Virus record (IMG/VR): IMGVR_UViG_3300029504_000114
Coordinates: 1 to 15,718 of that record
Length of the DNA: 15,718 bases
Strand: one strand, 5' to 3'
DNA from: a virus
Lineage: Duplodnaviria > Heunggongvirae > Uroviricota > Caudoviricetes
In this document: in pieces, positions 1-15,460 of the stretch
Numbering within the stretch: the first letter of the stretch is position 1
How the letters are laid out: every line of letters begins with the position of its first letter
Notes under the pieces: model-generated
Databases searched by the model: none
What the model saw: the letters and a program-made list of their open reading frames with translations, nothing else
What the model was told of the DNA's origin: nothing
Made by a program: the position numbers and the translations under genes

Positions 1-1053
1 TTACGGGGTAATGCCAACCGCTGCCGCCACTTTGTCGCCACTTGGCAGCGTTGCCAGAGGATTGAAACGGAGCGCCGTTTCCAGATGATCCGGTGCCAGA
101 TGTGCGTAACGCATAGTCATTTTTATATCGTGGTGTCCGAGAATTTTTTGTAAGGCCAGAATGTTTCCACCCGACATCATGAAGTGCGCCGCAAACGTAT
201 GGCGCAGAACGTGTGTGAGTTGACCGCGAGGGAGCACGATAGACGTTTTTTCCATCACGGATAAAAATTGAAAATAGCAGTCTGTGAAGAAATTGAACCC
301 ATCAAGCGCCATGATCTCTTCGTAAAGCTCTTTACTGATAGGGATGCTTCTGTTTTTCTTCCCCTTCGTTCTTACAAAGGTAATTCGGTATTTGGTCACC
401 TGTGAACGAGTAAGATTTACGGCTTCTCGCCAGCGTGCGCCTGTGCTTAAGCATATCTTAACTACCAGTGCCAGAATTGGGTCCTGACGTTTGCAATCAG
501 CCAGTAATTCAACAATCTGCTCATGGGTAAGCCATGCCATCTCTTTTTCTGCGATGGTGAATTTTCGCATGTTCTCCAGTGGGTTCGGATACGACCATTC
601 GCCCAGGCGGGATAGTTCGCTAAAAACACTACTTAGATAGCTTTGCTCCAGGTTAATGGTGACCGGGCTTGCTCCTTTCTTCCATTTCTCGCTGAAGTAG
701 ATCTCACCTGTCAGGCGTTTATCTCGATAGTGGGCAAACATTTTAGAGGTTAGATCAGTTGCAAGGGGATTGCCCAGAGCGTCAACCATCAGCAGCAATT
801 TGTCATAGACATGCTGCCCAGCTGTCAGTGATTTACCATGTAGTTTGAACCATAGCTCAACCACGTCTTTCAGTGTTCGACGATCCACTGATTCTCCCAG
901 CCAGGGCTTTGCTTCGGTTTCTTCCATCGTATGGCGCTCAAAAGCCAGAGCTTCGCCTTTGGTGGCGAATTGTTTACGCACACGACGCCCACTACGTCCG
1001 GCGGGGTAACATTCGCAAAGCCATTTTCCTGTGGTGAGTTTTCGTACTGCCAT
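1..1053 (-). CDS. int: Phage tyrosine integrase (P2/186 Int-like)
   Basis: ORF 1..1131 (-); likely start is the Met of MAVRKLTTGKW at 1053, preceded by GGAGGG. C-terminal catalytic-region features (R...HxxR...Y: LRHTFAAHF..., MRYAHL). Stop TAA at 1-3. Confidence 0.9.
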   Translation of the reverse strand: MAVRKLTTGKWLCECYPAGRSGRRVRKQFATKGEALAFERHTMEETEAKPWLGESVDRRTLKDVVELWFKLHGKSLTAGQHVYDKLLLMVDALGNPLATDLTSKMFAHYRDKRLTGEIYFSEKWKKGASPVTINLEQSYLSSVFSELSRLGEWSYPNPLENMRKFTIAEKEMAWLTHEQIVELLADCKRQDPILALVVKICLSTGARWREAVNLTRSQVTKYRITFVRTKGKKNRSIPISKELYEEIMALDGFNFFTDCYFQFLSVMEKTSIVLPRGQLTHVLRHTFAAHFMMSGGNILALQKILGHHDIKMTMRYAHLAPDHLETALRFNPLATLPSGDKVAAAVGITP

Positions 1054-1239
1054 AAAAAATGCCCTCCAATAGAGAGCATTTTTACTGTATATATAACCAG
1101 TGTCAATGTATGAAATCCTGCGACCATACATCTCACTGAAGCCATAATGAAGTTGGCTATTTTTTGCTATGTGAGTATGTGACTTTTGCGGTTAGCCTGC
1201 GGCTCATTGTTATATTAGGCGCAGATATAAAAGCAAAAT

Positions 1240-1431
1240 TTATCGCGAGTTTTTAGTACAGATTTTTTTTGATTTACTAATAGTTCCATCATTGCAAACG
1301 AACTTTCCATCGGAGGTACAGTGAGAGACACCTCCCTTTTTCCCAGAACAAGGATAATTTTTAGCATAGGTAGTTAGTGGGTTTAATAACAAAGAGCATG
1401 ATAAAACCACAAAAAATACCTTACCAAGCAT
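1240..1431 (-). CDS. Small secreted cysteine-rich protein (signal peptide + ~40 aa mature part with 4 Cys), unknown function; moron candidate
   Basis: Strong RBS (GGGAGGAAA, 5 nt before ATG on minus strand); N-terminal hydrophobic signal-like stretch [23 protein letters not shown]; lies in an AT-rich segment between cI and int. Confidence 0.5.
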
Positions 1432-1446
1432 AGTTTCCTCCCGGTA

Positions 1447-2022
1447 TTACCTAACGTACTTAATTGTTAAACTTATAATTTTCCCAATTATTTCAACATC
1501 TTCTATCTTGCACTCGAAGGCTCTGTTTCCACCTTCAACGAAGATTCTTCCACCGGGTAAACGAGTAATGTCGCGGATTGTTATTTCGCCATCAATACTT
1601 ATTACCCATTTACCGTCACGTATATCATCAAATTCTTTATCACAAATAAATTCAGAATTGTTATCTGTGATGACAAAAGGTTTTTTAAACGTAGAGGGTA
1701 GAAATCCCTTATCAAAAATATAAAAACCGTCTTCACGCAAGGCACCATCAGATAATACATATTTAGCAACTTCCATAGTATTTGTATTACCTGAAGTTTG
1801 CTTTGAACCATGTCCGGTTGTGAGCCAATTAAGCGAGGTGCCCGTTTCAAGGGCGCACTGGATTACCCATTCTGCTGGGAATGAGTCACGCATGTAGCGT
1901 GTGGCGAGTGTACTTTTAGAGATTCCTAAATGATCGCACAACGCCTGTCGAGTTTTGAATCCATAAGCTTCTACCATGCGCTCTATAGCGCCTCGTCCGC
2001 CTTTCTCCAAATTCATGGTCAC
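1447..2022 (-). CDS. cI: CI-type immunity repressor (phage 186 CI-like, ~190 aa)
   Basis: 191 aa, divergent from the early operon; N-terminal HTH-like region (ERMVEAYGFKTRQALCDHLGISKSTLATRYMR) and overall resemblance to 186 CI as recalled; position between int and apl/cox. Confidence 0.8.
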   Translation of the reverse strand: MTMNLEKGGRGAIERMVEAYGFKTRQALCDHLGISKSTLATRYMRDSFPAEWVIQCALETGTSLNWLTTGHGSKQTSGNTNTMEVAKYVLSDGALREDGFYIFDKGFLPSTFKKPFVITDNNSEFICDKEFDDIRDGKWVISIDGEITIRDITRLPGGRIFVEGGNRAFECKIEDVEIIGKIISLTIKYVR

Positions 2023-2040
2023 TCCAAGTGAACTTTTATC

Positions 2041-2069
2041 TTGACGATTTCACTGTGCGATCGTATGTT
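2041..2069 (+). promoter_or_regulatory. Candidate rightward early promoter (pR-like) in the cI / apl switch region
   Basis: TTGACG (2041-2046), 17-bp spacer, TATGTT (2064-2069); inverted GTGAAC...GTTCAC motifs flank it (possible operator). Confidence 0.4.
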
Positions 2070-2141
2070 TATGGTGTTCACAAAATACAAACGATCCGTA
2101 TTCGTCCTGATTAATCATCATTAAACGAGGAATGTTGCATC

Positions 2142-2363
2142 ATGAGACCTAACATTTCAATCACTCTTACCACGCCTCATGTGACTATTGAACGCTATAG
2201 CGAGCTGACAGGGCTGTCCATCGATACCATCAATGACATGTTGGCTGACGGACGCCTTATCCGTCACCGTCTGCGCAAAGATAAAAAACGTGAAAAAGTG
2301 ATGATCAACATAGCAGCCATGACCGTTGATGCGCTTTCAGAATGCAATCTAAACCTTAATTAG
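2142..2363 (+). CDS. Apl/Cox-like small HTH protein (excisionase / early repressor)
   Basis: 73 aa, first gene of the rightward operon divergent from cI; HTH-like segment [21 protein letters not shown]; RBS GAGGA upstream. Confidence 0.6.
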
Positions 2364-2395
2364 TTCGATTCTGAAATACATCAGAGGCATTGACC

Positions 2396-2905
2396 ATGTT
2401 TGATTACCAAGTTTCCAAACATCCACATTTTGATGAAGCCTGTCGTGCATTCGCATTGCGCCACAACCTAGTGCAACTGGCAGAACGTGCAGGCATGAAT
2501 GTGCAGATTCTGCGGAACAAGCTGAACCCAGCTCAACCTCATTTATTAACCGCACCAGAAATCTGGTTGCTTACCGATCTGACTGAAGATTCAACGCTGG
2601 TAGATGGCTTTCTGGCACAGATTCACTGCCTGCCATGTGTACCGATTAATGAGGTGGCAAAAGAGAAACTGCCGCATTACGTCATGAGTGCAACTGCAGA
2701 GATAGGGCGTGTCGCGGCAGGTGCGGTTTCTGGTGATGTAAAAACCAGTGCAGGCCGTCGTGATGCGATCAGCAGCATTAACTCTGTTACACGACTGATG
2801 GCGCTGGCTGCTGTTTCATTGCAGGCCCGTTTACAGGCTAATCCTGCGATGGCGAGTGCAGTTGATACCGTGACTGGCCTCGGTGCTTCATTCGGTTTGC
2901 TGTGA
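2396..2905 (+). CDS. cII: CII-like phage regulatory protein (186 CII family)
   Basis: ORF 2390..2905; start probably MFDYQ at 2396 (RBS CAGAGG). Sequence recalled as close to 186 CII. Confidence 0.8.
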
Positions 2906-2912
2906 GGTGCTT

Positions 2913-3113
2913 ATGCTGACGAAAGAACCATCATTTGCATCGCTGCTGGTAAAACAAAGCCCGGCAATGCACTACGGTCACGGCTGGATCATGGGTGAGG
3001 ATGGTAAACGCTGGCATCCGTGCCGTTCACAAGATGAATTGCTGGCAGAACTATCTACGAAAAAACGGGGGAACAAATGGCTATTGAAGGCGCTGCGGCG
3101 ACTGTTCCATTAA
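2913..3113 (+). CDS. Hypothetical small early protein (occupies the position of 186 fil)
   Basis: ATG at 2913 preceded by GAGGTG; 66 aa; assignment is positional only. Confidence 0.4.
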   Translation: MLTKEPSFASLLVKQSPAMHYGHGWIMGEDGKRWHPCRSQDELLAELSTKKRGNKWLLKALRRLFH

Positions 3114-3418
3114 GCCCCGGTGAACGCCTGAATGGACTTAATCACATAGCGGAATTAAGGGCGAAAGTTTTTGGCCTGAATATTGAGTCAGAGCTTGAGC
3201 GGTTTATTAAAGATATGCGTGATCCACGGGATATCAATAACGAACAAAATAAACGAGCACTGGCAGCCATATTCTTTATGGCAAAAATTCCGGCTGAACG
3301 TCATAGCATCAGCATTAATGAGCTGACCACTGACGAAAAGCGGGAGTTGATTAAAGCAATGAATCATTTTCGTGCAGTGGTGAGCTTATTTCCCAGACGG
3401 CTAACCATGCCGAATTAA
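3077..3418 (+). CDS. Hypothetical early protein (occupies the position of 186 dhr)
   Basis: 113 aa ORF with GGGGGA RBS; overlaps the upstream ORF by 37 nt; no recognisable motif. Confidence 0.5.
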   Translation: MAIEGAAATVPLSPGERLNGLNHIAELRAKVFGLNIESELERFIKDMRDPRDINNEQNKRALAAIFFMAKIPAERHSISINELTTDEKRELIKAMNHFRAVVSLFPRRLTMPN

Positions 3419-3479
3419 CCAACCAATGAAATTAATGGCGTAAACCCGCCGGGCATCCCTTTATCTAAATTCAGGAGAA

Positions 3480-3719
3480 TTGATTATGCGTAATATTGAA
3501 ACCCTCTCGACCAAAACCGGACCGGATGACGCAGGGCTTAATATTTTACTGACAGAGGCTCGTCTGGAAGAACGCCGGGCAAGGGCTGAAGCAATGGCAG
3601 CTCGCCTTGATAGCCTGGCGTGTCATATCACATCCCGCCAGCTAACCCACGTCGAAGCGGCAGAACTGCTTCGTGTGACTGCTGAAGCAATCCAGAACGA
3701 AGCGCAGGAGATCCACTAA
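3480..3719 (+). CDS. Hypothetical phage protein (P2 orf80/81-like position)
   Basis: 79 aa, RBS CAGGAGA; stop overlaps the next start (TAATG). Confidence 0.5.
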   Translation: MIMRNIETLSTKTGPDDAGLNILLTEARLEERRARAEAMAARLDSLACHITSRQLTHVEAAELLRVTAEAIQNEAQEIH

Positions 3720-3946
3720 TGGCTGATGCAATGGATCTCGTACAGCAGCGCGTTGAAGAAGAACGCCAACGCCATATCCGTGCTGCCCGTGCCAAAACGC
3801 CGGGCGTGTCCCGCGTGCTTTGCATTGAGTGTGAAGCGCCAATTCCGCCAGCACGCCGCCGTGCCATTCCGGGTGTGCAGCTTTGCATTACCTGTCAGGA
3901 AATCGCAGAGCTGAAAGGCAAACATTACAACGGAGGTGCTGTATGA
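3719..3946 (+). CDS. TraR/DksA-family C4 zinc-finger protein
   Basis: 75 aa with CIEC...(17 aa)...CITC four-cysteine motif; typical phage TraR-like position upstream of the replication gene. Confidence 0.7.
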   Translation: MADAMDLVQQRVEEERQRHIRAARAKTPGVSRVLCIECEAPIPPARRRAIPGVQLCITCQEIAELKGKHYNGGAV

Positions 3947-4800
3947 GCACCATCCTGAAATGGGCGGGAAATAAAACTGCCATAATGTCCGAACTGAAAA
4001 AACATCTTCCTGCTGGCCCGCGACTGGTTGAACCTTTCGCGGGTTCCTGTGCTGTGATGATGGAGACGGATTATCCCAGCTATCTGGTTGCGGATATTAA
4101 TCCTGATTTAATCAACCTCTATAAAAAGGTTGCCGCTGATTGTGAATCGTTTATATCTCGCGCCAGAGTTTTATTTGAGATCGCAAACAGGGAGGTGGCT
4201 TATTACAACATAAGGCAGGAGTTTAATTACTCAACTGAAATTACTGATTTCATGAAAGCGGTATATTTCCTGTATCTCAATCGTCACGGTTACCGTGGTT
4301 TATGTCGCTATAACAAGAGCGGGCATTTCAACATTCCCTACGGTAATTATAAAAATCCGTATTTCCCTGAAAAAGAAATTCGCGCATTTGCAGAAAAGGC
4401 CCAGCGAGCAACGTTTATCTGCGCCAGCTTTGATGAAACGCTGGCGATGTTGAAGGCGGGGGATGTGGTGTATTGCGATCCGCCGTATGACGGTACGTTT
4501 TCCGGCTATCACACTGACGGCTTCACTGAAGATGACCAGTATCACCTGGCATCTGTTCTTGAACATCGGTCATCAGAAGGACATCCGGTCATTGTTTCTA
4601 ACAGTGACACATCCCTGATCCGTTCGCTGTATCGCAATTTTACTCACCACTACATCAAGGCAAAACGCAGCATCGGTGTGGCAGCTGGCGAGGGTAAATC
4701 AGCAACAGAAATCATTGCTGTTTCCGAGCCGCGCTGCTGGGTGGGATTTGATTATTCGCGTGGCGTGGATAGTTCTGCCGTGTACGGAGTACGTGCATGA
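3943..4800 (+). CDS. dam: DNA adenine methyltransferase (Dam-like, GATC-specific family)
   Basis: Start [11 protein letters not shown] (ATGA overlap with upstream stop); DPPY catalytic motif encoded at 4477-4488; ORF 3883..4800 trimmed to the Met with the coupled start. Confidence 0.85.
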
Positions 4801-7211
4801 GTCATGCCGATATGAACAACTGCTGCGGCTTTAACGAAGCTGCCGCATCGTTCTCATGGAACAGCCCGAAAAAGGCCATTAACCCTTATCTGGACCCGGT
4901 GGAAGTTGCGCCGGTTTCTACGCTTTCAAACCTGATCACTCTGTACGCTGCCGATAACGAGCAGGAACAGCTGCGCCGTGAGGCGCTGAGTGATCAGGTC
5001 TGGGAGCGTTATTTCTTTAATGAATCCCGTGATCCTGTCCAGCGCGAAATGGAACAGGATAAGCTCATTAGTCGGGCAAAGCTGGCGCATGAGCAGCAGC
5101 GTTTTAATCCGGATATGGTCATTCTGGCGGACGTCAACGCCCAGCCTTCCCATATCAGCAAGCCGCTGATGCAACGTATTGAATACTTCAGCAGCCTGGG
5201 CAGGCCAAAGGCTTATTCCCGCTATTTACGTGAGACGATTAAGCCATGTTTGGAACGACTGGAGCATGTACGCGACAGTCAGCTATCTGCATCTTTTCGC
5301 TTTATGGCAAGCCATGAAGGGCTGGACGGCCTGCTGATCCTGCCTGAAATGAGTCAGGATCAGGTGAAACGCCTGTCTACCTTGGTAGCTGCGCATATGA
5401 GTATGTGCCTTGATGCCGCTTGTGGCGATTTGTATGCCACCGATGACGTTAAGCCAGAAGAAATCCGCAATACATGGGAAAGGGTGGCAGCGGAAACCCT
5501 GCGTCTGGATGTCATCCCGCCTGCGTTTGAGCAACTCCGTCGGAAAAGAAACCGCCGTAAACCCGTGCCCTATGAACTCATTCCGGGTTCGCTGGCGCGT
5601 ATGTTGTGCGCCGACTGGTGGTATCGGAAATTATGGAAGATGCGTTGCGAATGGCGGGAAGAGCAGTTGCGTGCAGTCTGCCTTGTCAGCAAAAAAGCAT
5701 CTCCTTATGTCAGCTATGAAGCCGTGATGCATAAACGTGAGCAGCGCCGTAAGTCGCTGGAGTTTTTCCGTTCTCATGAGCTGGTGAACGAAGACGGCGA
5801 CACGCTGGACATGGAGGATGTGGTAAACGCCAGCAGCAGCAACCCAGCGCATCGCCGCAATGAGATGATGGCCTGTGTTAAAGGTCTGGAGCTTATCGCG
5901 GAAATGCGCGGTGACTGCGCCGTTTTCTACACCATCACCTGTCCGTCACGTTTCCATTCCACGCTAAATAACGGCAGGCCCAACCCAACCTGGACAAATG
6001 CGACGGTAAGACAAAGCAGTGATTATCTGGTCGGCATGTTTGCTGCATTTCGTAAGGCGATGCACAAAGCCGGATTGCGGTGGTATGGCGTGCGGGTGGC
6101 TGAGCCGCATCATGACGGTACAGTTCACTGGCACCTGTTGTGTTTTATGCGCAAAAAAGACCGCCGCACCATCACTGCATTACTGCGTAAGTTTGCCATC
6201 CGTGAAGACCGCGAGGAGCTGGGCAATAACACTGGGCCGCGCTTTAAGTCTGAGTTGATTAACCCGCGCAAAGGTACGCCAACAAGCTACATCGCGAAAT
6301 ACATCAGTAAGAACATTGACGGGCGTGGTCTGGCTGGCGAGATCAGCAAGGAAACGGGGAAATCCCTGCGTGATAATGCTGAATACGTTAATGCCTGGGC
6401 GTCTCTGCATCGTGTTCAGCAATTCCGCTTCTTTGGCATTCCGGGGCGTCAGGCTTACCGTGAACTGCGATTGCTGGCTGGTCAGGCGGCAAGGCAACAG
6501 GGGGACAAAAAAGCAGGTGCGCCGGTACTGGATAACCCGCGCCTTGATGCCATTCTGGCTGCTGCTGATGCTGGTTGTTTTGCCACCTACATCATGAAGC
6601 AGGGTGGCGTACTGGTTCCCCGCAAATATCACCTCATCAGAACTGCTTATGAAATCAACGAAGAGCCGACCGCCTATGGCGATCACGGCATTCGTATTTA
6701 TGGCATCTGGTCACCTATTGCAGAGGGCAAGATCTGCACTCATGCCGTGAAGTGGAAAATGGTTCGTAAGGCCGTTGACGTTCAGGAGGCGGCAGCCGAC
6801 CAGGGCGCTTGCGCCCCTTGGACTCGTGGCAATAACTGTCCCCTTGCTGAAAATTTGAACCAACAAGGGAAAGACAAATCAGCTGATGGGGATACCAGAA
6901 CGGACATTACCCGCATGGATGACAAGGAGTTGCACGATTACCTGCACAGTATGAGCAAAAAAGAGCGCCGGGAACTGGCTGCAAGGTTACGCCTGGTGAA
7001 ACCGAAACGGCGTAAAGACTACAAACAGCGAATTACAGACCATCAGCGACAGCAGCTTGTCTATGAGCTGAAGTCCAGAGGATTTGATGGTAGCGAGAAA
7101 GAGGTCGATTTACTCCTTCGCGGCGGCAGTATTCCGTCAGGAGCAGGCCTGCGTATCTTCTATCGGAACCAGCGTTTGCAGGAAGATGATAAGTGGCGGG
7201 ATCTGTATTAA
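4797..7211 (+). CDS. A: Replication initiation protein A (P2 gpA-type rolling-circle endonuclease)
   Basis: 804 aa; motifs [15 protein letters not shown] and [12 protein letters not shown] characteristic of P2/186 gpA; ATGA overlap with dam. Confidence 0.9.
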
Positions 7212-7302
7212 TTACGCGGGTTAACAATTCGTGCTCTTAATAATACCAGGCATATCAGGCTGATGAACGTAAAAAACGTTTTACATCAGTAAGATTATTA
7301 TA

Positions 7303-7322
7303 TACTGTAAATATAAACAGTG
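7303..7322. promoter_or_regulatory. LexA (SOS) box
   Basis: TACTGTAAATATAAACAGTG: CTGT-N8-ACAG at 7305-7320, ~45 bp upstream of the 62-aa ORF; an adjacent partial site ATGTATACAGTA lies at 7326-7337. Confidence 0.6.
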
Positions 7323-7362
7323 GATATGTATACAGTATTGCTTTGGTGTCATAGGAGGAAAG

Positions 7363-7551
7363 ATGCAGGACTATTTTTTGGAGTCTTTGAAGCTCCAGCG
7401 CATTGATTTTTTTCTTAAGCTTGTGGCGGCTAGTGAGTGTAGTGATGAAGAGAAGGGGCTGGCTCTGCAGTGGGTTTCTGAATTGACTGATGAACTCATG
7501 GCAAAAATCAGAACCCACGAATACAACCGCTCAATGGATGTCATCAGCTGA
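7363..7551 (+). CDS. Small protein, possible N-terminal part of a split Tum-like antirepressor
   Basis: 62 aa with strong RBS AGGAGG; directly downstream of the LexA box and upstream of the DinI-like ORF. Confidence 0.45.
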   Translation: MQDYFLESLKLQRIDFFLKLVAASECSDEEKGLALQWVSELTDELMAKIRTHEYNRSMDVIS

Positions 7552-7561
7552 GGTGACTTTT

Positions 7562-7795
7562 ATGCGCATTGAAATAATGATCGATAAAGAGCAGAAGATT
7601 AGCCAGTCTACCCTGGACGCCCTTGAATCCGAGCTTTACCGCAATCTGCGCCCCCTGTATCCCAAAACGGTAATTCGCATTCGCAAAGGTAGCTCTAACG
7701 GGGTGGAACTAACCGGACTGCAACTGGACGAAGAAAGAAAACAAGTGATGAAAATTATGCAGAAGGTGTGGGAAGACGACAGCTGGCTGCATTAA
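7562..7795 (+). CDS. DinI-like protein (Tum C-terminal domain-like)
   Basis: Start MRIEIMIDKEQ at 7562 with RBS GAGGTG; 77 aa; DinI-family pattern (MRIE... near N-terminus, ...WEDDSWLH at C-terminus). Confidence 0.75.
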   Translation: MRIEIMIDKEQKISQSTLDALESELYRNLRPLYPKTVIRIRKGSSNGVELTGLQLDEERKQVMKIMQKVWEDDSWLH

Positions 7796-7930
7796 GAAAC
7801 GTTGCTGGCGTCTGAACTTGCTTCTGGCGTCAGCAAGGTTGAACAACGAGCCCTTGCGAGGCGTTAGCTCTGTAGTGCATGTCTATGCCGCATGAGATCG
7901 CATGATCGTTTGAGGATCGTTTTTGCTAAG

Positions 7931-7954
7931 GCCCGCCAGAACTGGCGGGCTTTT
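7931..7954 (+). terminator. Rho-independent terminator after the tum/dinI-like operon
   Basis: GCCCGCCAG / CTGGCGGGC perfect 9-bp stem followed by TTTTG. Confidence 0.6.
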
Positions 7955-8026
7955 GCGTAGATCATGCAGGTGCATGAAAACCACTACATAAAGCGGGCAG
8001 GCGTGGCGGGGATACGAGCGCGCGCC

Positions 8027-8055
8027 TTGCCTTATATCTATTTGTTCATTAAAAT
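8027..8055 (+). promoter_or_regulatory. Candidate promoter for the retron ncRNA/RT operon
   Basis: TTGCCT (8027-8032), 17-bp spacer, TAAAAT (8050-8055); predicted start near 8062. Confidence 0.3.
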
Positions 8056-8061
8056 CATTAT

Positions 8062-8218
8062 GCTCTTTAGTGTAGGAACATTGGTTCCAGCCGGGTGATT
8101 AGCCAGGCTTAAATTTATTGTCCGGTTTAGGGTTGCGAAAGACACAGATTTCTCCTTCGCATCCCTGCCCGGGGCAGATATGCGAAGGAGAAATCTGTGT
8201 CTTTCGCTGTCTTTAGTG
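8062..8218 (+). ncRNA. Candidate retron msr-msd non-coding RNA (exact ends and a1/a2 unresolved)
   Basis: Non-coding segment directly upstream of the retron-type RT; small stem-loop GGAAC-ATTG-GTTCC (8075-8088) then a 73-nt near-perfect hairpin (8135-8207); bounded by a 9-bp direct repeat TCTTTAGTG (8064-8072 and 8210-8218). Confidence 0.55.
8135..8207. repeat. Long near-perfect inverted repeat / hairpin (candidate msd stem-loop of msDNA)
   Basis: GCGAAAGACACAGATTTCTCCTTCGCAT (8135-8162) is the exact reverse complement of 8180-8207; the centre CTGCCC-G-GGGCAG is itself palindromic. Confidence 0.9.
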
Positions 8219-8273
8219 AAGAGTCAAAGCGCTATGTAAAGTTGCATAGCGCTTTGGTTTTAAGAGGGGTTAT

Positions 8274-9209
8274 ATGCAACTAACTTCTAAAATTATCAGT
8301 AAGTTTAATTATAATAGATTAGCTTTCCAATTACTTTTAAATGAGGCCCCCAAAAAATATAAAGTTTATTATATTCCTAAACGTGGCGCAGGTTTTCGGG
8401 TGATAGCTCAGCCGACAAAGGAACTAAAAAACGTACAGAGATTTATAGTATCTTTGCTACAGCCAAAGCTGCCTGTTCATCATAAGGCAATGGCATATGA
8501 ATATAAAAAAAGTATTAAAGATAATGCATTGTTGCATAAAGATAATAATTATATTCTTAAAATGGATTTTCAGAACTTCTTTAACAAAATTAAACCTGAT
8601 ATATTTTTCTCGAAACTTGAGAACACAGGGCTGAAATTGGATTCATTTGATGAGAACACCCTACGTAATTTGCTTTTTTGGCGTCCGGGAAAAAAGAGAA
8701 GTACAACGTTGATATTAAGTGTAGGGGCGCCAAGCTCACCATTTATTAGTAATTTTGTTATGTATGACTTTGACAAGAGTCTTGATGATTGGTGCCGTAA
8801 CAATGGTATCACTTATTCAAGGTATGCAGATGATATAACTTTTTCAACTAATATTAAGGATATATTGTGCAGGGTTCCTAAGGTGGTAAAAAAAATGTTG
8901 TCGCTCCATGTTCCCGGTCTATCAATCAATGAATCTAAAACAATTTTTACATCGATGGCTCATAATCGGCACGTGACTGGTGTAACACTTACACCTCAGG
9001 GCAATTTATCAATTGGTCGCGATCGTAAAAGGATGCTGTTTGCAAAGATTCATAAATATTCTTTGGGACTCTTATCTTCCGAAGAAATAAATAAAACCAA
9101 AGGGATGATTGCGTTTGCAAATTATTTGGAGGGTGATTTTTTATTAAGGTTACAAAAAAAATATGGTTGTGAGTTAATAACTAAGTTCCTGATGGAAGGA
9201 AACAAATAA
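8274..9209 (+). CDS. Retron-type reverse transcriptase
   Basis: 311 aa; RT motifs YYIPKRGAGFRVI, LKMDFQNFF, VGAPSSP, YSRYADDITFS (YADD at 8823-8834) and the retron-typical NRHVTGV (VTG) motif; RBS AAGAGGGG. Confidence 0.9.
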   Translation: MQLTSKIISKFNYNRLAFQLLLNEAPKKYKVYYIPKRGAGFRVIAQPTKELKNVQRFIVSLLQPKLPVHHKAMAYEYKKSIKDNALLHKDNNYILKMDFQNFFNKIKPDIFFSKLENTGLKLDSFDENTLRNLLFWRPGKKRSTTLILSVGAPSSPFISNFVMYDFDKSLDDWCRNNGITYSRYADDITFSTNIKDILCRVPKVVKKMLSLHVPGLSINESKTIFTSMAHNRHVTGVTLTPQGNLSIGRDRKRMLFAKIHKYSLGLLSSEEINKTKGMIAFANYLEGDFLLRLQKKYGCELITKFLMEGNK

Positions 9210-10843
9210 TGATAAATAAAATGAATTTAGAGACTTGCTATGTTGATTTTTTAGAGTTGGAATCACATGTGATAAACGAGGATTATTTGAAGGAGTCTGT
9301 TGAGCTTCAAAAGCTAATATCTACTTTAAATGAGAGTAAGTTTCATTTAAATAAAATAGGTATACATGATTTTAAACGGATAAGAGAACTACAGATTTCT
9401 TTAGAAGATGATTTGACTGTTTTTGTCGGGGATAACGGATTCGGTAAAAGCACTATTTTGGATGCAATAGCAATTGTTTTGAGTTGGTTGAGATCAAATA
9501 TTGAAAAGGAGAGTAAGCCTGGTACTTATATTAAAAGCCATGAAGTTAATAACTCTGTTGATGTTGAGTATGCATCAATTGATGCAAATATAAAACTCAA
9601 GGACTTTAATACCAGTATTTTGATTACTAAAGCGAAAGAGGGGGCATATTATTCTAGAAATAATGAATTGTTGGAGGTAAAAAAACTTGCAAGTATTTAT
9701 AGACTTGTGAATAAATATGTTGATAATGCAAGCTTGCCTTTGATGGCATATTATTCTATTGCGCGTTCTTATATAGGCGGTGGGGTTGATAGGAAAAGAA
9801 AAAATGCTAAAACTAAAACTGTATGGTCAAAATTCGATGTGTATGATGAAATCGAGTTTGACAGAAATGATTTTACCGATTTTTTTCAATGGCTTGTATT
9901 TCTTCATAACAGAGCTTCACAAGAGAAATTGAGTGAGTCACAAACGACAATCAATGCGTTATTTTCAGATATTCAGAGTTTGAAAGCAACATTAACTCAA
10001 CTATCTGCGATTGATAATATTGATTCAACAGTTATAAAAGGTTTAGAGCTTTCGCTTAAAGAAAAATTGAACTACATGAAATCTCTGCAATCAGGAGAAC
10101 ATAAGTTTAATAATGCAGTATCACTTTATGATAGTGTTATAAATACCATTCTAAAGTTCTTGCCTGAATTTCAGTGGATTAAGCTTGTTTATGGTGATGA
10201 TGATTATAAGATTATCCTTAAAAAAGGAGAGGTTGAATTAGATATTCAACAGTTGTCTCAAGGTGAGAAAACTATATTTACTTTAGTTGGTGATTTGGCT
10301 CGACGTTTAATTTTACTTAATCCTAATTTATCTAATCCTCTATTGGGATATGGGATTGTTTTAATTGATGAAATTGATTTGCATTTGCATCCGCAATGGC
10401 AACAGACAATTATTGAGCGTTTGACATCTACATTCCCAAATGTTCAATTTGTAATTACTACCCATAGCCCACAGGTTTTATCCACTGTTAGCTCTCGTTC
10501 AGTGCGTATTCTACAGGAAGTGGAAGTAGATGGTGTTAATGATTTGATAGTGTCTCACCCCGACTATCAAATAAAAGGTGTTAGTAATCAGGATGCACTT
10601 TTATATGGAATGAGAACTGATCCTATACCCTCTACTAAAGAAAATGGTTGGCTTGAAGAATATAAAAAATTGGTTGAGCTTAATCGTTATAGCAGTGACG
10701 AGGCTCTTTTGTTAAGAGAAAAAGTTATTAAACATTTCGGATTAGACCATCCTTTAGTTCAAGAGTGTGATGATCTTATATCTGTTTTGGAGTTCAAAAA
10801 TAAGATAAATCAGCACTTTTCTGGAAGTAAGGATGTAAAATGA
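9209..10843 (+). CDS. ABC/SMC-type ATPase (PtuA-like retron effector ATPase)
   Basis: 544 aa; Walker A GDNGFGKST (9428-9454), signature-like LSQGEK, Walker B VLIDEIDLHLH, H-loop-like ITTHSP; start overlaps the RT stop (TAATG). Confidence 0.85.
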   Translation: MINKMNLETCYVDFLELESHVINEDYLKESVELQKLISTLNESKFHLNKIGIHDFKRIRELQISLEDDLTVFVGDNGFGKSTILDAIAIVLSWLRSNIEKESKPGTYIKSHEVNNSVDVEYASIDANIKLKDFNTSILITKAKEGAYYSRNNELLEVKKLASIYRLVNKYVDNASLPLMAYYSIARSYIGGGVDRKRKNAKTKTVWSKFDVYDEIEFDRNDFTDFFQWLVFLHNRASQEKLSESQTTINALFSDIQSLKATLTQLSAIDNIDSTVIKGLELSLKEKLNYMKSLQSGEHKFNNAVSLYDSVINTILKFLPEFQWIKLVYGDDDYKIILKKGEVELDIQQLSQGEKTIFTLVGDLARRLILLNPNLSNPLLGYGIVLIDEIDLHLHPQWQQTIIERLTSTFPNVQFVITTHSPQVLSTVSSRSVRILQEVEVDGVNDLIVSHPDYQIKGVSNQDALLYGMRTDPIPSTKENGWLEEYKKLVELNRYSSDEALLLREKVIKHFGLDHPLVQECDDLISVLEFKNKINQHFSGSKDVK

Positions 10844-11523
10844 AATATCTATCTAGGCAAATGCCAGGGCCTTCCGTTCTTAATAAATTTGACTATAGGA
10901 GGGATGATTGGAATTCCCTATCATCAAATGATAAAAAAGAAATATGGGAAGAAATAATAAAAATGCAAGGTAAATTATGTGCTTATTGCGAGAAAAAAAT
11001 AGAGCATCATAAAAGTGGTGGCAAAAATAAAGTTGAGAGGCATATTGAGCATTTTTACAGGAAAAGTTATTACAAAAATTTAACTTTCGAGTGGTCTAAT
11101 TTGTTTGGCTCATGTGGTGAGCCGCAAAGGTGTGGGTTTTATAAGGATAAGCAAAAATATAACGATGATGATTTAATTAAAGCTGATAGACAAAATCCAG
11201 ATGTTTTTTTCCATTTTTTGGAAAATGGTGATGTTCATATTAGAGAAGGCTTGAATGAGAAAGAACACAAAATGGCAGAGGTTACGTTAAGAGTATTTAA
11301 CTTAAACCCGTCCTCAGGAGGAGTCAAGGCGGAAAGAAGACGTGCAATAGAATTAAGCATGACATTAATAAAGGAACTGGTCGGATGTGCATCTCAGCTT
11401 ATTGAATCAGGATGTGAAATTGAAGATGTTAGATCTATGGTCTTTGATGAGTTTAAAAAGAATGTAAAAGATAGATGCTTTACCACTGCGATAAAGCATG
11501 TTTTTGAGAATAGAATGCCTTAA
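10840..11523 (+). CDS. HNH endonuclease (PtuB-like retron effector nuclease)
   Basis: 227 aa; CAYC...HHKSGGKNKVERHIEHF...NL...SCGEPQRC HNH/zinc-finger pattern; ATGA overlap with the ATPase stop indicates translational coupling. Confidence 0.85.
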   Translation: MKYLSRQMPGPSVLNKFDYRRDDWNSLSSNDKKEIWEEIIKMQGKLCAYCEKKIEHHKSGGKNKVERHIEHFYRKSYYKNLTFEWSNLFGSCGEPQRCGFYKDKQKYNDDDLIKADRQNPDVFFHFLENGDVHIREGLNEKEHKMAEVTLRVFNLNPSSGGVKAERRRAIELSMTLIKELVGCASQLIESGCEIEDVRSMVFDEFKKNVKDRCFTTAIKHVFENRMP

Positions 11524-11546
11524 AGGTTAGAGGGATGTATATATAA

Positions 11547-12160
11547 TTAATCTATATTATATTCTGAGAAATTGATAATATGCATCCCTATCCACTGATT
11601 AAATTCATGGATTTTTTTTTGTAGAGGTACTAATTCATTTGTCACAAAAACCTTACTAGCTTTCTCCACATCCCCAAAACCCCCAACATTATTAGGCATT
11701 ATCCCCATCATCTGTGGCGGAACGCGATGTGCTGCCATCATGTCATCGCGGCTGACATTTTTGATATTCAGAAACTCATCCTTCGCCGCAACTTCTGACA
11801 AAGGGATGATCTGAAGGCCGTCCTTTTTGCCATTAGGCGAGTACATAAACAGGTTGCGGAAGTTGCCTGGACCTTTGGCGCTTTTCATCGCGTTGCGGAG
11901 ATTGTTCACATCCTCCTGATTCTGCGCGGCGTCGGTCATGTACATGATGAAGCCTGCATGGCTGCCGTTGATGTAATACTTACGGCGGAACAGCGTGGCA
12001 GACTCGTTGAGCAGGGCGGATGGAATGGCAGAAAGATAGCCTGGCAGGCCGTAGATCTCCTGGTTGATGTCCGGTTCCATCAGATGAAAAATGCTGCCTT
12101 TCGTGAACTGATACGGCTGGGTTGTCATACCGTATTGCACAAACCAGTAGGTACCCGCGA
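11547..12160 (-). pseudogene. Portal protein (P2 gpQ-like) fragment lacking its N-terminal part; 3' end possibly altered by the cargo junction
   Basis: Portal-like sequence from MTTQPYQFTKG onward (ATG at 12126-12128) toward lower coordinates; the upstream part of ORF 11547..12347 is antisense to the D' fragment and not portal-like. Junction coordinate approximate. Confidence 0.6.
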
Positions 12161-12554
12161 ACCTGCGAAGAAAGAAAGCACCACGGTGAAGCGTAAGCGC
12201 AGAACTAAGAAGCAGAAGAAAGAGCCAGAAGCGAAGCAGGGCGATTACCTGGTGGGTACGGATGAAAACGTGCTGGTACTTAATCGCACTTATGCCAACC
12301 GGAGCAACGCCGAACGAGCGGCGAAAATGCAGTGGGAACGCCTGCAACGCGGCGTTGCGTCATTCTCGCTACAACTGGCAGAAGGGCGGGCAGATCTCTA
12401 CACGGAAATGCCAGTGAAAGTCAGTGGCTTTAAACAGCCGATAGATGATGCGGAATGGACCATTACGACTCTGACGCATACCATCAGCCCGGATAACGGT
12501 TTTACGACCAGTCTGGAGCTTGAAGTGAGGATTGATGATTTCGAAATGGAATGA
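12160..12554 (+). pseudogene. Tail protein D (P2 gpD-like) C-terminal fragment
   Basis: C-terminal ~130 aa of ORF 11958..12554 (...LNRTYANRSNAERAAKMQWERLQRGV...FTTSLELEVRIDDFEME) resembles gpD C-terminus as recalled; N-terminal 65 aa of the ORF is antisense to the portal fragment. Junction approximate. Confidence 0.55.
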
Positions 12555-12644
12555 TTCTTCGCAATGGAGAACTTTTAAGTTTGCAAAATGGAATAATGCG
12601 GTATCATTATTGTGAATTTAGCAAAAATGGGGAGAACTCGAAAA

Positions 12645-12863
12645 ATGATGATTTGCCCACTGTGTGGAAGTGCCGCCCATACTCGCAGCAGTTTTCAGGT
12701 ATCTTCATTGACCAAAGAGCGTTACAACCAGTGCCAGAACATTAACTGCAGCCATACTTTTGTTACCCATGAAACTTTTGTTCGTTCGATTGCAACGCCA
12801 AAAGAGTCAAATCCGGTTCAGCCGCATCCAATGAAATCAGGACAGGTGGCGCTCTCTCTTTGA
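12645..12863 (+). CDS. ogr: Ogr/Delta-family zinc-finger late transcription activator
   Basis: Start MMICPLCGSAAHTRSS (ATG 12645, RBS GGGGAGA); CPLC...(Ogr-type) ...CQNINCSHTF zinc-finger pattern; ~72 aa. Confidence 0.8.
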   Translation: MMICPLCGSAAHTRSSFQVSSLTKERYNQCQNINCSHTFVTHETFVRSIATPKESNPVQPHPMKSGQVALSL

Positions 12864-12943
12864 CGCTGCCGCCATTTTGTCGCCATCGTTAAAAAACAGT
12901 GTTTCTAACATCATGATTTTAAACAGCTTAAATTTCAGGCAAC

Positions 12944-12986
12944 AAAAAACCCATCAACCTTGAACCGAAATGGCGGGGTTGATGGG
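12944..12986 (-). terminator. Rho-independent terminator on the minus strand downstream of ybjL
   Basis: CCCATCAACC (12950-12959) / GGTTGATGGG (12977-12986) 10-bp stem; on the minus strand it is followed by a T6 run (plus-strand A6 at 12944-12949). Confidence 0.5.
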
Positions 12987-13098
12987 CTCCACAAAATGGG
13001 GACATCAAAGAAAAGCAGTGGCACTAATTAAGACTGATGCCCTGCGGAAAAGTTCTGCGGTTGTGCAAAAAAATTTCATTTTCAGGGCAACTTCAGTT

Positions 13099-14784
13099 TT
13101 ATCCTAATCCTGGCCATACCATGACGATGATTGTCCCTGCCAGCGTCAGCAGGACGTTGGCGATTGCATAGGTGCCCGCATAGCCCAGCGCCGGGATGTT
13201 ACTGCGAGCTGTATCACTGATGATCTCCATTGCCGGCGCGCAGGTACGTGCGCCCATCATTGCGCCGAACAACAGCGCGCGGTTCATTCGCAATACATAA
13301 GCACCGAACAAGAAACAGATAACCACGGGCACCAGACTGACAATCAATCCGGCAATCAACATCTGACCGCCAATCGCGCCCAGGCCGTTATTAATACCGC
13401 TACCGGCGCTCAGACCAACGCCTGCCATAAACACCATCAAGCCGAACTCTTTCACCATGCTTAATGCACCCTGCGGAATGTAACCGAAGGTCGGGTGGTT
13501 AGCACGCATAAAGCCCAGCATAATTCCGGCGAATAACAACCCGGCAGCGTTCCCCATGCCGAAACTGAATGTGCTGAACTGGAAGGTGATCATCCCGATC
13601 ATCAGCCCAATAACAAAGAAGGCGCAGAATGCCAGCAGGTCAGTGACCTGGCTGTGAATCGAGATAAAGCCGATGCGATCGGCGATGGTTTTTACGCGGC
13701 GGGCATCGCCGCTGACTTGTAAAACGTCACCTTTGTTAAGCACGACGTTGTCATCTATCGGCATCTCAATCTGGCTACGAATGACGCGGTTAAGGAAGCA
13801 ACCGTGATCGGTCAACTTCAGTTGTGCGAGACGTTTACCTACAGCGTTATGGTTTTTAACGACCACTTCTTCAGTGACGATACGCATGTCGAGAAGGTCA
13901 CGATCGAAAACTTCTTTACCGTTACGGAAGCTGGGATCGAGTCGGGCATGGGCGTCGGGATAGCCTACCAACGCTATTTCATCGCCCATTTGTAGCACGG
14001 CATCACCGTCTGGATTTGCCAGAATCCCGTTACGTCGAATACGTTCAATGTAGCAGCCGGTTTGTCGATAAATACCCAGTTCACGCAGATTTTTGCCGTC
14101 GGTCCAGGCCACCAGTTCCGGGCCGACGCGATAGGCGCGGATCACCGGTAAATAAACCTTACGGTTGGCATCAGTGTCCAGGCCACGTTCGCGGGCGATT
14201 TGCTGGGCGCTGGTCTGTAAGTCCTGATGCTGCAATTTCGGCAAGTAACGCGCACCAACAATCAAACTCACCAGACCGATTAAATAGGTTAAGGCATACC
14301 CGAGGCTCAGATTATCCAGTGCCAGTGAGAGCTGCCTGCTTTCCATGCCGGAATGACGCAGTGTATCGCCAGCACCGACCAGAACCGGTGTCGACGTCAT
14401 AGAGCCTGCTAACATACCGGCCGTCAGGCCAATATCCCAGCCAAACAGCTTACCTAACCCTAAGGCGATCACCAGCGCACTGCCAACCATCACCAGTGCT
14501 AACATTAGGTAATTTTTCCCATCGCGAAAAAAAATGGAAAAAAAGTTCGGTCCGGCTTCGACCCCGACGCAGAAAATAAACAGCATAAAGCCAAGATTAA
14601 GCGCATCGGTGTTAATGCTGAAATGTTGTTGGCCTAATAACAGCGATACGACTAAAACGCCAATGGAATTACCCAGTTGGATCGAACCAAGTCGTAACTT
14701 TCCGAGACATAGCCCAAGCGCGAGGACCACAAATAATAACAGAATGTAATTCCCATTTAACAATTCGGCGACGTTTATATTCAC
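13099..14784 (-). CDS. ybjL: Putative transporter YbjL (AAE family, with two RCK/TrkA-C-like domains)
   Basis: 561 aa; starts [24 protein letters not shown] and matches E. coli YbjL as recalled; host gene. Confidence 0.9.
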
Positions 14785-15053
14785 GGAGGCTAACTTCTTG
14801 TTTACTAGTAAGCTGTTGAAAGAAATGGTAATTTACGATAATGTTTTTTACCAGAATTCAGGGCGCAGATTCATTCAGCGCACCTAAACGATAGTAAAGT
14901 AACAATATATTTTACTAGTGTAATCACATTAGGTATCAACGGCTATATGAATTGCGTTGGCCTATATTAGCATGGAATGCGAAGCGGCTTTATCTTACTG
15001 AACGCCACACTGGCGAAAAATGTGTTCGATAGACGCAGTGTCAGGAGGAACGA

Positions 15054-15451: not shown

Positions 15452-15460
15452 GTCAGACGA

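Follow-up and report, generated by a model that had tools for sequence, protein, structure and literature searches.

Small exported proteins that phages use to exclude other phages include Cor of phi80 and N15, Llp of T5, and Sp of T4. Among cellular proteins, YdcA of E. coli K-12 was predicted to be periplasmic (PMC11340327), and E. coli W became sensitive to 300 mM 3-hydroxypropionate when ydcA, which the same paper reports to be induced by acid through YdcI, was deleted (PMC7642389). Dis2, a stoichiometric T4SS component consisting of two lobes with five disulfides (PMC8486379), has been described as Legionella-specific and without structural relatives (PMC8486379, PMC12716638), and it is dispensable (PMC12716638). 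In P2, a minor defence hotspot has been located "between integrase and primase" (PMC13586616). We analyzed a small prophage gene whose product belongs to the YdcA family and is probably related to Dis2, and which lies, as cargo, directly behind a repressor gene.

The window, by which we mean the whole stretch of 15,718 nucleotides that was analyzed (positions 1 to 15,718 of IMG/VR record IMGVR_UViG_3300029504_000114), comes from a degraded E. coli prophage remnant of the 186/P2 type. The host genes rybB, ybjL, and ybjM flank the remnant on the side covered by the window, and rcdA lies just outside in identical loci. The ORF list confirmed a gene, here called ydcA-like, at positions 1240-1431 of the minus strand, with an ATG start and a 63-aa pre-protein as its product. 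The features of this region are as follows.

1..1053, minus strand: P2/186-type tyrosine integrase gene, the last of cI-ydcA-int (Pfam Int_N and Phage_integrase; RefSeq).
1055..1083, minus strand: int leader hairpin with a 13-bp stem, part of the int module and not of the cargo.
1113..1239, minus strand: 3' untranslated tail of the cargo segment, which folds to a stem, with no clear intrinsic terminator.
1240..1431, minus strand: ydcA-like gene (63-aa pre-protein), stop codon at 1240-1242 (NF007463, phrog_6000, RefSeq, dN/dS).
1243..1362, minus strand: predicted mature peptide of 40 aa, pI 9.6, net charge about +7, with the pattern C-x9-C-x7-C-x11-C.
1363..1431, minus strand: part coding for the predicted signal peptide, residues 1-23 (hydropathy, -3/-1 rule, 35-sequence alignment).
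1432..1446, minus strand: cI-ydcA intercistronic gap of 15 nt, promoter and terminator absent (sequence and promoter/terminator scan).
1437..1442, minus strand: Shine-Dalgarno sequence GGGAGG, 5 nt upstream of the ATG, read from the sequence.
1447..2022, minus strand: 186-type CI repressor gene, the first lysogenic cistron (Pfam Phage_CI_repr and Phage_CI_C; RefSeq), which in RefSeq starts at the ATG at 2016.

The ydcA-like protein matched the NCBIfam model NF007463 (PRK10040.1-2) over residues 5-63 with 116.1 bits against a cutoff of 93 (E = 4.2e-34), and phrog_6000 with E = 4.6e-34. PF27300:YdcA is recorded on its homologues, including a cluster representative with 97% identity; the Pfam-A copy that we used did not contain PF27300, and owing to that absence it gave only a sub-threshold GULLO2-like match. 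The exact protein is WP_001321204.1 in RefSeq, where it bears the label "YdcA family protein". The earlier note had not recognized the family; YdcA (PF27300, NF007463) is, however, already catalogued, WP_001321204.1 is a known member, and the name is the one that RefSeq uses for this very protein. We found no mention of WP_001321204 or PF27300 in the literature. The protein is a paralogue of chromosomal E. coli YdcA (b1419), encoded between trg and cybB on the core chromosome, and the cores of the two are about 79% identical. Three other names led nowhere: a link to the lpg1681 family was noise (NCBIfam E = 0.11; three of the 35 homologues matched, with a best E of 0.066), no basis was found for the UniRef name "Conjugal transfer protein", and no evidence of relatedness was found for the gene called "ydcA" in the gonococcal island.

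The exact protein occurs on at least 1000 contigs, and its relatives are encoded by at least 525 IMG/VR contigs. The segment is present in 650 of the 5426 complete E. coli genomes (about 12%), always in the order cI-ydcA-int, and the gene is also found in full-length prophages of about 36-38 kb. The earlier note named the absence or disruption of the ORF in all related prophages, together with the lack of a compositional signal, as a refuting finding; the ORF was intact in all 80 IMG/VR loci. With dN/dS values of 0.025-0.066 at dS of 0.19-0.31 among the prophage variants, the ORF is under strong purifying selection. Six 63-aa copies from E. coli prophages, whose ORFs differ from that of the window by 0-13 nt, were identical from N25 onward (NYPCS...NSR), and their first mature residue was K or R. 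The family as a whole is mostly stand-alone and very conserved in sequence, and its genes lie on both chromosomes and plasmids in many Proteobacteria. High conservation of the mature peptide extends to genera that are far apart, and 297 of 306 domain instances have four Cys. A profile search of a set of 5.8 billion proteins yielded no domain architectures, because the best 120 of its 893 matches were all stand-alone. The identity of this gene as a YdcA-family member and its conservation are, in our judgment, practically certain.

The first 23 residues were predicted to form a Sec signal peptide that is cleaved by SPase I after Ala23, on the basis of hydropathy, the -3/-1 rule, and the alignment. 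The predicted signal peptide runs from MLGK through a 12-residue hydrophobic core (Kyte-Doolittle values up to 2.7) to NPLTTYA/K, so that T occupies position -3 and A position -1 of the cleavage site (T-Y-A/K). Across the 35 homologues, the Ala at -1 was conserved at 90% or more and the remainder of the signal region was variable; the conserved core begins at this Ala, directly after the signal peptide. A fifth Cys, C12, lies within the signal peptide and is not conserved. A lipoprotein reading was rejected because C12 is too near the N-terminus, has a Lys within the eight residues before it, and is not conserved, and because the family cleaves at the conserved Ala. The mature product is lysine-rich, with a calculated mass of 4264.8 Da when reduced and about 4261 Da after the loss of 4 H, and every one of its four Cys is conserved; as predicted from the sequence, these four invariant residues should form two periplasmic disulfides. 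The invariant or nearly invariant columns were C28, C38, C46, C58, K32, G33, G34, F44, G49, S52, S54, and K55, and the motifs GKKGG and CNDG-x-S-x-SK are present, with the four conserved Cys, in a domain of about 35 residues. An AF2 model of the mature peptide showed a small beta-hairpin core with a mean pLDDT of 79, and the peptide has no catalytic features. Thus the small cysteine-rich ORF of 63 aa described in the earlier note, with its signal-like N-terminus and four Cys in the mature part, was confirmed, and the same was true of its strong RBS (GGGAGG, 5 nt before the ATG) and of its orientation, cI, the ORF, and int all lying on the minus strand.

The cI stop codon, TAA at 1447-1449, is separated by the 15-nt gap from the ATG of the ydcA-like gene. 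The stretch from cI to the ORF has no sigma-70-like promoter, and the minus strand has no intrinsic terminator downstream of the ORF. The spacing from cI to ydcA was constant in all of the 76 IMG/VR loci in which the three genes are present together. GGAGG at the same spacing was kept in four of five compared copies with a 15-nt gap, the fifth having the weaker GGGAGA, and the KAP-linked copies L009 and L017 have a different, longer leader with AAGGA. From this layout, the ydcA-like gene appears to be read from the cI transcript as the second lysogenic cistron. Since the 15-nt gap has neither promoter nor terminator, cells that make CI should export the peptide constitutively, carriers of the degraded remnant included, and we consider co-expression with cI, together with export of the peptide, highly probable. 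Downstream of the gene, the RNA fold of 1040-1250 had a z-score of -3.4. The int leader hairpin sequesters the int SD, GGAGGG, and a U-run lies just upstream of the int ATG. The hairpin region is conserved with the int modules of Klebsiella and E. coli phages, and the part homologous to int modules from other phages ends at window positions 1111-1113. No known sRNA lies in the 3' tail, since a search of Rfam with window positions 900-2200 at E<=1 gave zero matches.

In 186-type phages, the interval from cI to int is a site of variable cargo. It is 69 nt long and holds no gene in a Yersinia phage, carries PD-Lambda-1 in vB_EcoM-813R9, is filled by a 349-aa ORF in another relative, and in other prophages contains ydcA together with the KAP NTPase PDC-S20. 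The ydcA gene remains attached to cI even where other cargo sits downstream, and in Haemophilus phage HP2 an unannotated ydcA homologue has an ATG that overlaps the cI stop. The ORF, called "inserted" in the earlier note, is not a recent isolated insertion, given this tight linkage to cI in several lineages, HP2 among them. The moron layout proposed there holds in that the gene is cargo at a position whose content differs from one related phage to the next; unlike a classical moron, however, the ydcA-like gene lacks its own promoter and its own terminator. The claim that the segment is AT-rich relative to its flanks was likewise only half right. The segment noted (1132-1446) has a GC content of 37.1% and the ORF itself one of 34.9% (GC3 of 0.30), against 48.5% for int and 45% for the whole window; the C-terminal domain of cI (1447-1770), in contrast, has 34.3%, and it is the HTH half of cI alone that reaches 47.6%. 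The AT-rich block also spans the C-terminal domain. Among the 315-nt windows of the whole stretch, 23% are equally AT-rich. A scan of PADLOC-DB at E<=0.01 found zero families for the ydcA-like protein; the scan works, since neighbours in the same window strongly matched the retron I-A models. Both HP2 and a lambdoid prophage have, beside ydcA, a gene for a secreted OB-fold (tRNA_anti-like) protein. A chromosomal ydcA (locus L022) has a neighbour of 251 aa, which is unrelated to the OB-fold proteins encoded beside ydcA in HP2 and locus L031.

The top PDB sequence match of the ydcA-like protein was Dis2, with E = 4.7e-5 when the signal-peptide columns were included and E = 0.054 with the mature domain only; the former value is inflated by the signal peptide, so that the link rests on the convergence of several weak tests. 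A comparison with the Dis2 lobes by hhalign gave a probability of 88.6% and E = 2.6e-6, Foldseek ranked Dis2 first (TMq of 0.62), and a Dis2 homologue carries the PF27300 tag. The lobes also share the pattern C-x-K-x-GG-[VI]-x-x-C...G-x-x-VCN[DN]G-x-x-S with YdcA. We regard homology between the YdcA domain and the Dis2 lobes of the Legionella Dot/Icm machine as probable; what this link supplies is a fold and a place in the cell rather than a mechanism.

The YdcA domain was also found fused, at the N-terminus, to exported nucleases of the SNase, Endonuclease_NS, and PLDc_2 (PLD-type) families. These fusions are rare, with a few metagenomic contigs each, and the YdcA-SNase fusions are cargo in the tail regions of P2-like phages. 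One T6SS cluster includes a gene for a protein with a YdcA domain, and a YdcA-VasL fusion was seen, the VasL-type fusions looking partly like frameshift artefacts. The mean net charge of the domain is +4.4, and the nuclease-fused domains, at -2 to +3, are not cationic. The idea of a cationic DNA clamp was rejected because SNase-fused domains have a net charge of -2, which indicates that charge is not the conserved feature. The non-cationic nuclease-fused domains also weaken a simple DNA-binding reading, and an anchoring role fits equally well.

The explanation that we favour is that the gene is prophage cargo for a periplasmic binding module, expressed in lysogens and bringing about a lysogenic conversion of the envelope; as a whole, we hold this to be an even proposition. 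The YdcA-family pre-protein would be made constitutively in lysogens from the cI-ydcA-int operon and would be cleaved after Ala23 to a 40-residue periplasmic peptide with two disulfides, which may work through occupancy alone, binding a target in the periplasm as a free-standing module. A domain of this kind, about 35 residues long, probably makes up both lobes of Dis2, next to the outer membrane; it also forms the N-terminal part of exported nucleases of the SNase, Endonuclease_NS, and PLD types and recurs within a T6SS cluster. The conversion could then consist of interference with foreign DNA or phage entering via the periplasm. That the peptide is a binding module acting in the periplasm seems somewhat likelier than not, and the exclusion of DNA or phage entry as the selected benefit is speculative, possible but doubtful. 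The mean net charge of +4.4 and the OB-fold neighbours in HP2 and the lambdoid prophage are further points in favour of a binding module; against the explanation stand the dispensability of Dis2 (PMC12716638), the rarity of the nuclease fusions, and the zero families found in PADLOC-DB. Conservation across genera and the existence of a core paralogue fit a housekeeping role in the envelope better than a phage-specific exclusion factor. In its broadest form, the proposal would make the YdcA domain an unrecognized, widespread periplasmic targeting or binding module for DNA, a cell-wall ligand, or an outer-membrane-proximal ligand, deployed by temperate phages to block foreign DNA, which we regard as unlikely. 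The domain would then be common to Legionella Dis2, exported phage-borne nucleases, and T6SS-associated proteins. The phages concerned are 186/P2-type, HP2, lambdoid, and Moraxella and Acinetobacter siphophages, which would deploy it from lysogeny or cargo sites. The DNA blocked in the periplasm would be that of superinfecting phages, or transforming or conjugative DNA.

The high identity of the mature core to chromosomal YdcA at the trg-cybB locus suggests another benefit, namely that the prophage supplies a second, constitutive YdcA copy against acid, organic-acid, or periplasmic stress, and so raises the fitness of the lysogen rather than excluding phages. The 3-hydroxypropionate sensitivity of the ydcA deletion in E. 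coli W and the reported acid induction through YdcI (PMC7642389), as well as the mostly stand-alone, widespread, and very conserved occurrence of the family in Proteobacteria, agree with such stress tolerance. The 3-hydroxypropionate phenotype is, however, a single report without complementation or mechanism, and stress tolerance would leave unexplained the nuclease fusions, the T4SS and T6SS contexts, and the repeated placement of the gene at phage cargo sites where defence genes are otherwise found; we judge it somewhat unlikely. The links to secretion systems could instead mean that the peptide docks on an outer-membrane-proximal complex and thereby masks a phage receptor or modulates secretion. 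The Dis2 lobes, to which the YdcA domain is probably homologous, contact DotK, DotC, and DotD near the outer membrane, a YdcA-domain protein lies inside a T6SS cluster, and the YdcA-VasL fusion points in the same direction. Small exported receptor blockers of prophages, such as Cor and Llp, provide a precedent. Candidate docking partners are a secretin, a pilus, a T6SS, a porin, or a receptor, the model being Dis2 on the Dot/Icm outer-membrane cap. But T4SS and T6SS genes are absent from the window, the ydcA-like protein lacks the lipobox of Cor and Llp, the VasL-type fusions partly resemble frameshift artefacts, and the sequence hardly changes between hosts whose surface machines differ, which speaks against a protein partner specific to one host. 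We consider docking of this kind quite improbable.

A mature product that is small, cationic (pI 9.6), and disulfide-rich, from a type of gene that is often on mobile elements, would also suit a secreted, bacteriocin-like antimicrobial peptide, or an immunity peptide that counters such a toxin in the periplasm, as the earlier note had proposed. No adjoining immunity, export, or lysis partner gene was present in any context examined, however, and a Sec signal alone leaves the product in the periplasm of the producer; neither the core chromosomal paralogue in E. coli nor the nuclease fusions and the Dis2 membership fit a toxin. We consider an antimicrobial or immunity function very improbable. 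The AT-rich and partly non-coding spacer of a degraded prophage, finally, is where a chance ORF or a decaying, functionless passenger might be expected, and this is already refuted by the conservation data: the family match at E = 4e-34, dN/dS of about 0.03-0.07, residues unchanged from N25 in copies with 8-13 nt differences across the full ORF, and intact ORFs in 80 of 80 viral loci, as well as the presence of the gene in full-length prophages.

Of the complete E. coli genomes, about one in eight carry ydcA behind a prophage repressor gene, among them those of the laboratory strains E. coli B/BL21(DE3) and ATCC 8739 (in BL21(DE3) and ATCC 8739 the gene is 99.7-100% identical), and because of this position all carriers should export a 4.3-kDa peptide to the periplasm. 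Three links are not drawn in the papers that we read: the probable homology of the YdcA domain to the Dis2 lobes, its N-terminal fusion to three unrelated families of exported nucleases that are themselves phage cargo, and its repeated presence at cargo sites of unrelated temperate phages. Together, they make the function approachable by simple assays. If the peptide is an exclusion factor or a DNA- or cell-wall-binding module, it would represent a very small, single-gene system of prophage-encoded host protection and would open a first way into the function of Dis2 and E. coli YdcA; should it be no more than a paralogue for stress tolerance, this would be ordinary lysogenic conversion.

Like the ydcA-like protein, Cor, Llp, and Sp are small, phage-encoded, exported, and envelope-acting, and Cor is also found at phage cargo positions; to our knowledge, there is no detectable sequence similarity between them. 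The YdcA family is much better conserved than receptor-specific blockers, and some of its members are encoded on chromosomes and resemble housekeeping proteins. Cargo and defence genes at the P2/186 hotspots likewise occupy a variable interval between conserved genes (PMC9122126, Rousset et al. 2022; PMC13586616). The ydcA-like gene resembles them in being AT-rich and in its predicted expression in lysogens, and differs from hotspot defence genes in matching no known defence family in PADLOC. Dis2 (Lpg0823; PDB 7MUC/7MUD) and YdcA are both small, disulfide-pinned, and periplasmic, as predicted for YdcA. Dis2 has two lobes and five disulfides and is part of a T4SS, whereas the prophage protein has a single lobe with four Cys and two predicted disulfides, in a window that contains no T4SS genes. 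The closest counterpart is chromosomal E. coli YdcA, which has the same architecture of a signal peptide and a four-Cys core of about 35 residues and shares the core PCSGxKGG[VI]SHC...GKFVCNDG[ST]ISxSKKxC with the prophage protein. The prophage copy fits the sub-model NF007463 best and not the K-12 model NF007462 (68 bits against a cutoff of 118). Whereas chromosomal ydcA is reported to be regulated by acid and YdcI, the prophage copy is wired into the cI operon and should therefore be constitutive in lysogens.

The ydcA-like gene is located directly behind cI and carries its own translation signal.

1240–1431, minus strand: ydcA-like ORF in the window ORF list, encoding a 63-aa protein
1429–1431, minus strand: ATG of the ORF
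1437–1442, minus strand: Shine-Dalgarno sequence GGGAGG, 5 nt before the ATG
1447–1449, minus strand: cI stop codon, 15 nt ahead of the ATG

The N-terminus of the product combined a single Lys with a hydrophobic core of 12 residues and a T-Y-A|K site that obeyed the -3/-1 rule. In an alignment of 35 homologues, the N-terminal segment was free to vary and the Ala at -1 and all residues downstream were kept, which is the usual mark of a cleaved signal peptide. The predicted mature 40-mer had four Cys, all conserved among homologues, a pI of 9.6, and a net charge of approximately +7. The strong ribosome-binding site, signal-peptide-like N-terminus, and four mature cysteines described in the earlier note were thus borne out. 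A lipoprotein reading was rejected because the fifth Cys, in the signal peptide, was non-conserved and outside any lipobox context. A consensus scan of the minus strand gave no sigma-70-like promoter 5' of the ORF start, and the sole match in the ORF area (1427–1398) was inside the ORF. No minus-strand intrinsic terminator was found 3' of the ORF, and no Rfam family matched the ORF region.

The family was not recognized at first reading; the homology search gave a clear match to YdcA. NCBIfam NF007463 matched the product with 116 bits (curated cutoff, 93; E = 4e-34), phrog_6000 also matched, RefSeq WP_001321204.1, which is this protein, was already named "YdcA family protein", and Pfam PF27300, named YdcA, was annotated on homologues. 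Gene and family are already catalogued, and this is therefore not a new kind of element. The chromosomal E. coli YdcA (57 aa, trg-cybB locus) has a core approximately 79% identical to the prophage protein. It has been predicted to be periplasmic, with function unknown (PMC11340327); E. coli W became sensitive to 300 mM 3-hydroxypropionate when ydcA was deleted, and the chromosomal gene was reported to be acid-induced via YdcI (PMC7642389). A mature-domain HMM identified 333 cluster representatives among 1.84 billion proteins, mostly stand-alone proteins of 55–100 aa, with some tandem repeats.

The ORF is a real gene, and the reading that it has no function is essentially excluded. The identical protein was encoded on at least 1000 contigs, and the 315-nt segment was present in 650 of 5426 complete E. 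coli genomes (590 at full length), including E. coli B/BL21 derivatives, BL21(DE3) and ATCC 8739. Relatives were encoded on at least 525 IMG/VR viral contigs. The earlier note had considered that the ORF might be absent or disrupted in all related prophages; it was intact in all of the best 80 of these loci, and the cI-ydcA-int spacing was unchanged in 76, the other four being cut by contig ends. Between diverged prophage copies, dN/dS was 0.025–0.066 at dS 0.19–0.31, and the rare amino-acid changes were confined to the signal peptide or the first mature residue.

A P2/186-type integrase gene, with its stop codon at the window start, comes first, after which the gene order is cI, apl/cox, cII, fil, Dam methylase, and replication endonuclease A. 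Distal to endonuclease A are a DinI-like gene and the following features.

8274–11523, plus strand: complete retron type I-A defence system with three protein genes
8274–9209, plus strand: retron reverse transcriptase
9209–10843, plus strand: retron PtuA-like ATPase
10840–11523, plus strand: retron HNH/PtuB-like nuclease
11547–12347, minus strand: truncated portal gene, 266 aa, partial Phage_portal match
12941–13019, minus strand: host rybB (RF00110), directly after the truncated portal gene
12941–15431: host genes rybB, ybjL, and ybjM, directly beyond the truncated portal gene

From this gene content, the immediate passage from a truncated portal gene to host genes, and the identical DNA adjoining rcdA in many E. 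coli chromosomes, the element is a 186-like prophage remnant of approximately 12.4 kb whose late genes are gone. In E. coli B/BL21, the remnant has undergone further deletion and includes a fused cII-A pseudogene. The retron occupies the GpA-GpQ hotspot known from P2-like phages; its region is the AT-richest part of the window, with GC down to 28%.

The segment had been described as AT-rich relative to both flanking genes. This held against int (37.1% GC for 1132–1446 versus 48.5%) but not against the cI C-terminal domain (34.3%). Since the latter value is like that of the ORF (34.9%), the AT-rich block comprises the cI C-terminal domain and the ORF, and it is not unusual within the window (45% GC overall), where 23% of equal-sized windows match the AT-richness of the segment. 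A sharp GC step was seen inside cI, between the C-terminal domain (1447–1770, 34%) and the HTH domain (1771–2022, 48%), which suggests a mosaic junction in the repressor gene, with ydcA and the C-terminal domain moving as a unit.

Similarity to the int modules of other phages ended at 1111–1113; the cargo segment therefore spans approximately 1113–1446, close to the insert bounds of 1132–1446 first proposed. The content of the cI-int interval varied among 186-type phages.

Yersinia phage: 69 nt, without a gene
Klebsiella phage 4LV2017: 349-aa ORF
vB_EcoM-813R9 (L011): PD-Lambda-1 in place of ydcA (E = 3e-120)
E. coli prophages L008, L009, and L017–L021: ydcA, then KAP NTPase PDC-S20 (E = 2.6e-171)

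The KAP NTPase, when present, was downstream of ydcA, which stayed attached to cI. The 15-nt gap and Shine-Dalgarno sequence were repeated in close E. coli copies, one of which had the weaker GGGAGA; the KAP-linked copies of L009 and L017 had a different, longer leader. In Haemophilus phage HP2, with a CI of only 32% identity, there is an unannotated homologue of ydcA.

L001 (HP2) 2920–3102 = NC_003315.1 2486–2668, minus strand: ydcA homologue, 60 aa, its ATG overlapping the cI stop (TAATG)

Downstream of this homologue come orf1(S), which encodes a secreted tRNA_anti-like OB-fold protein, and then int; a tblastn search for the ORF found HP2 and phage S2 and no further Haemophilus phage record. 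The variable interval, with ydcA nevertheless kept attached to cI, supports the identification of ydcA as cargo in the lysogeny operon. The proposed moron layout was accordingly retained as to cargo at a variable site, but a classical autonomous moron was rejected because neither a promoter nor a terminator of its own was found. Carrying such defence candidates as PDC-S20 or PD-Lambda-1, the cI-int interval in 186-type prophages acts like a small hotspot for defence genes within the lysogeny operon. Among the minor hotspots for defence genes in P2-like phages, a recent survey named the site "between integrase and primase" (PMC13586616). Two further features precede int.

1055–1083, minus strand: 13-bp hairpin, AAAAAUGCUCUCU-AUU-GGAGGGCAUUUUU, pairing the int Shine-Dalgarno sequence
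1078–1106: promoter-like site TTGACA-17-AAAAAT, overlapping the hairpin

The hairpin ends in a U-run just ahead of the int ATG and resembles a terminator or translational attenuator that would restrict int expression from the cI transcript.

YdcA-family genes also occurred among tail genes of Moraxella and Acinetobacter phages, on small Psychrobacter and larger Acinetobacter and Rhizobium plasmids, plainly on chromosomes in some cases, and in lambdoid prophages, where they lie between Q and the lysis genes but on the other strand, once with an HP2 OB-fold homologue alongside. Rare fusions placed a YdcA domain directly after the signal peptide of SNase (two clusters), Endonuclease_NS-type, and PLD-type nucleases.

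L032 4001–4669 and L033 4001–4630 (metagenomic contigs): YdcA-SNase fusions (signal peptide, YdcA domain, thermonuclease), cargo in the tail-gene region of P2-like phages
L037 4926–5327 (Citrobacter IncF plasmid NZ_CP053574.1): gene for a 133-aa YdcA-domain protein, flanked by tssE and a GIY-YIG nuclease gene within a T6SS cluster

The SNase fusion genes adjoin GpU, GpD, and tape-measure genes. The T6SS cluster has a VasL-domain gene near the YdcA-domain gene, and Enterobacter relatives of the plasmid protein appear as YdcA-VasL fusions, some of which look frameshifted. The YdcA domain was usually cationic (mean net charge +4.4; 82% of instances at least +3); nuclease-fused domains were not (-2 to +3).

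The sole solved structure resembling the YdcA domain was Dis2 (Lpg0823) of the Legionella Dot/Icm outer-membrane cap. Dis2 ranked first in a PDB sequence search (E = 4.7e-5 with signal-peptide columns, 0.054 without them) and in Foldseek with both AF2 models (TMq 0.62 for the mature-only model; E-values approximately 1). Comparison with a Dis2-lobe alignment by hhalign gave a probability of 88.6% (E = 2.6e-6, 26 columns), and PF27300 was pre-annotated on a Dis2 homologue. Taken together, the Dis2 resemblance, nuclease fusions, and charge data make the domain look like a small periplasmic module for binding or anchoring, stabilised by disulfides. Its candidate ligands are nucleic acid, the cell wall or outer membrane, or protein.

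The conserved gene behind cI would very probably be co-transcribed with cI from the lysogenic promoter and translated from its own Shine-Dalgarno sequence, and the product would very probably be exported by Sec, cleaved after Ala23, and oxidized to two disulfides. Because the mature peptide has no catalytic features, the free domain probably works through occupancy of a conserved ligand in the periplasm. How the lysogen gains is speculative: hindered entry of foreign DNA or phage is possible though doubtful, and is proposed because the gene shares cargo sites with defence genes and the domain recurs in phage-borne exported nucleases. The main rival, a stress-tolerance role as reported for chromosomal YdcA, is rather unlikely, although the very high cross-genus conservation and the core chromosomal paralogue fit it better than exclusion. 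A role in docking to a machine or receptor appears improbable, and a toxin or immunity peptide, also named in the earlier note, very improbable.

The Dis2 link, nuclease fusions, and repeated capture by unrelated temperate phages are modestly interesting and easily testable. Dis2 itself has two similar lobes with five disulfides, lies near the outer membrane, and has been described as specific to Legionella, with no structural relatives, and as not required for T4SS assembly (PMC8486379, PMC12716638).
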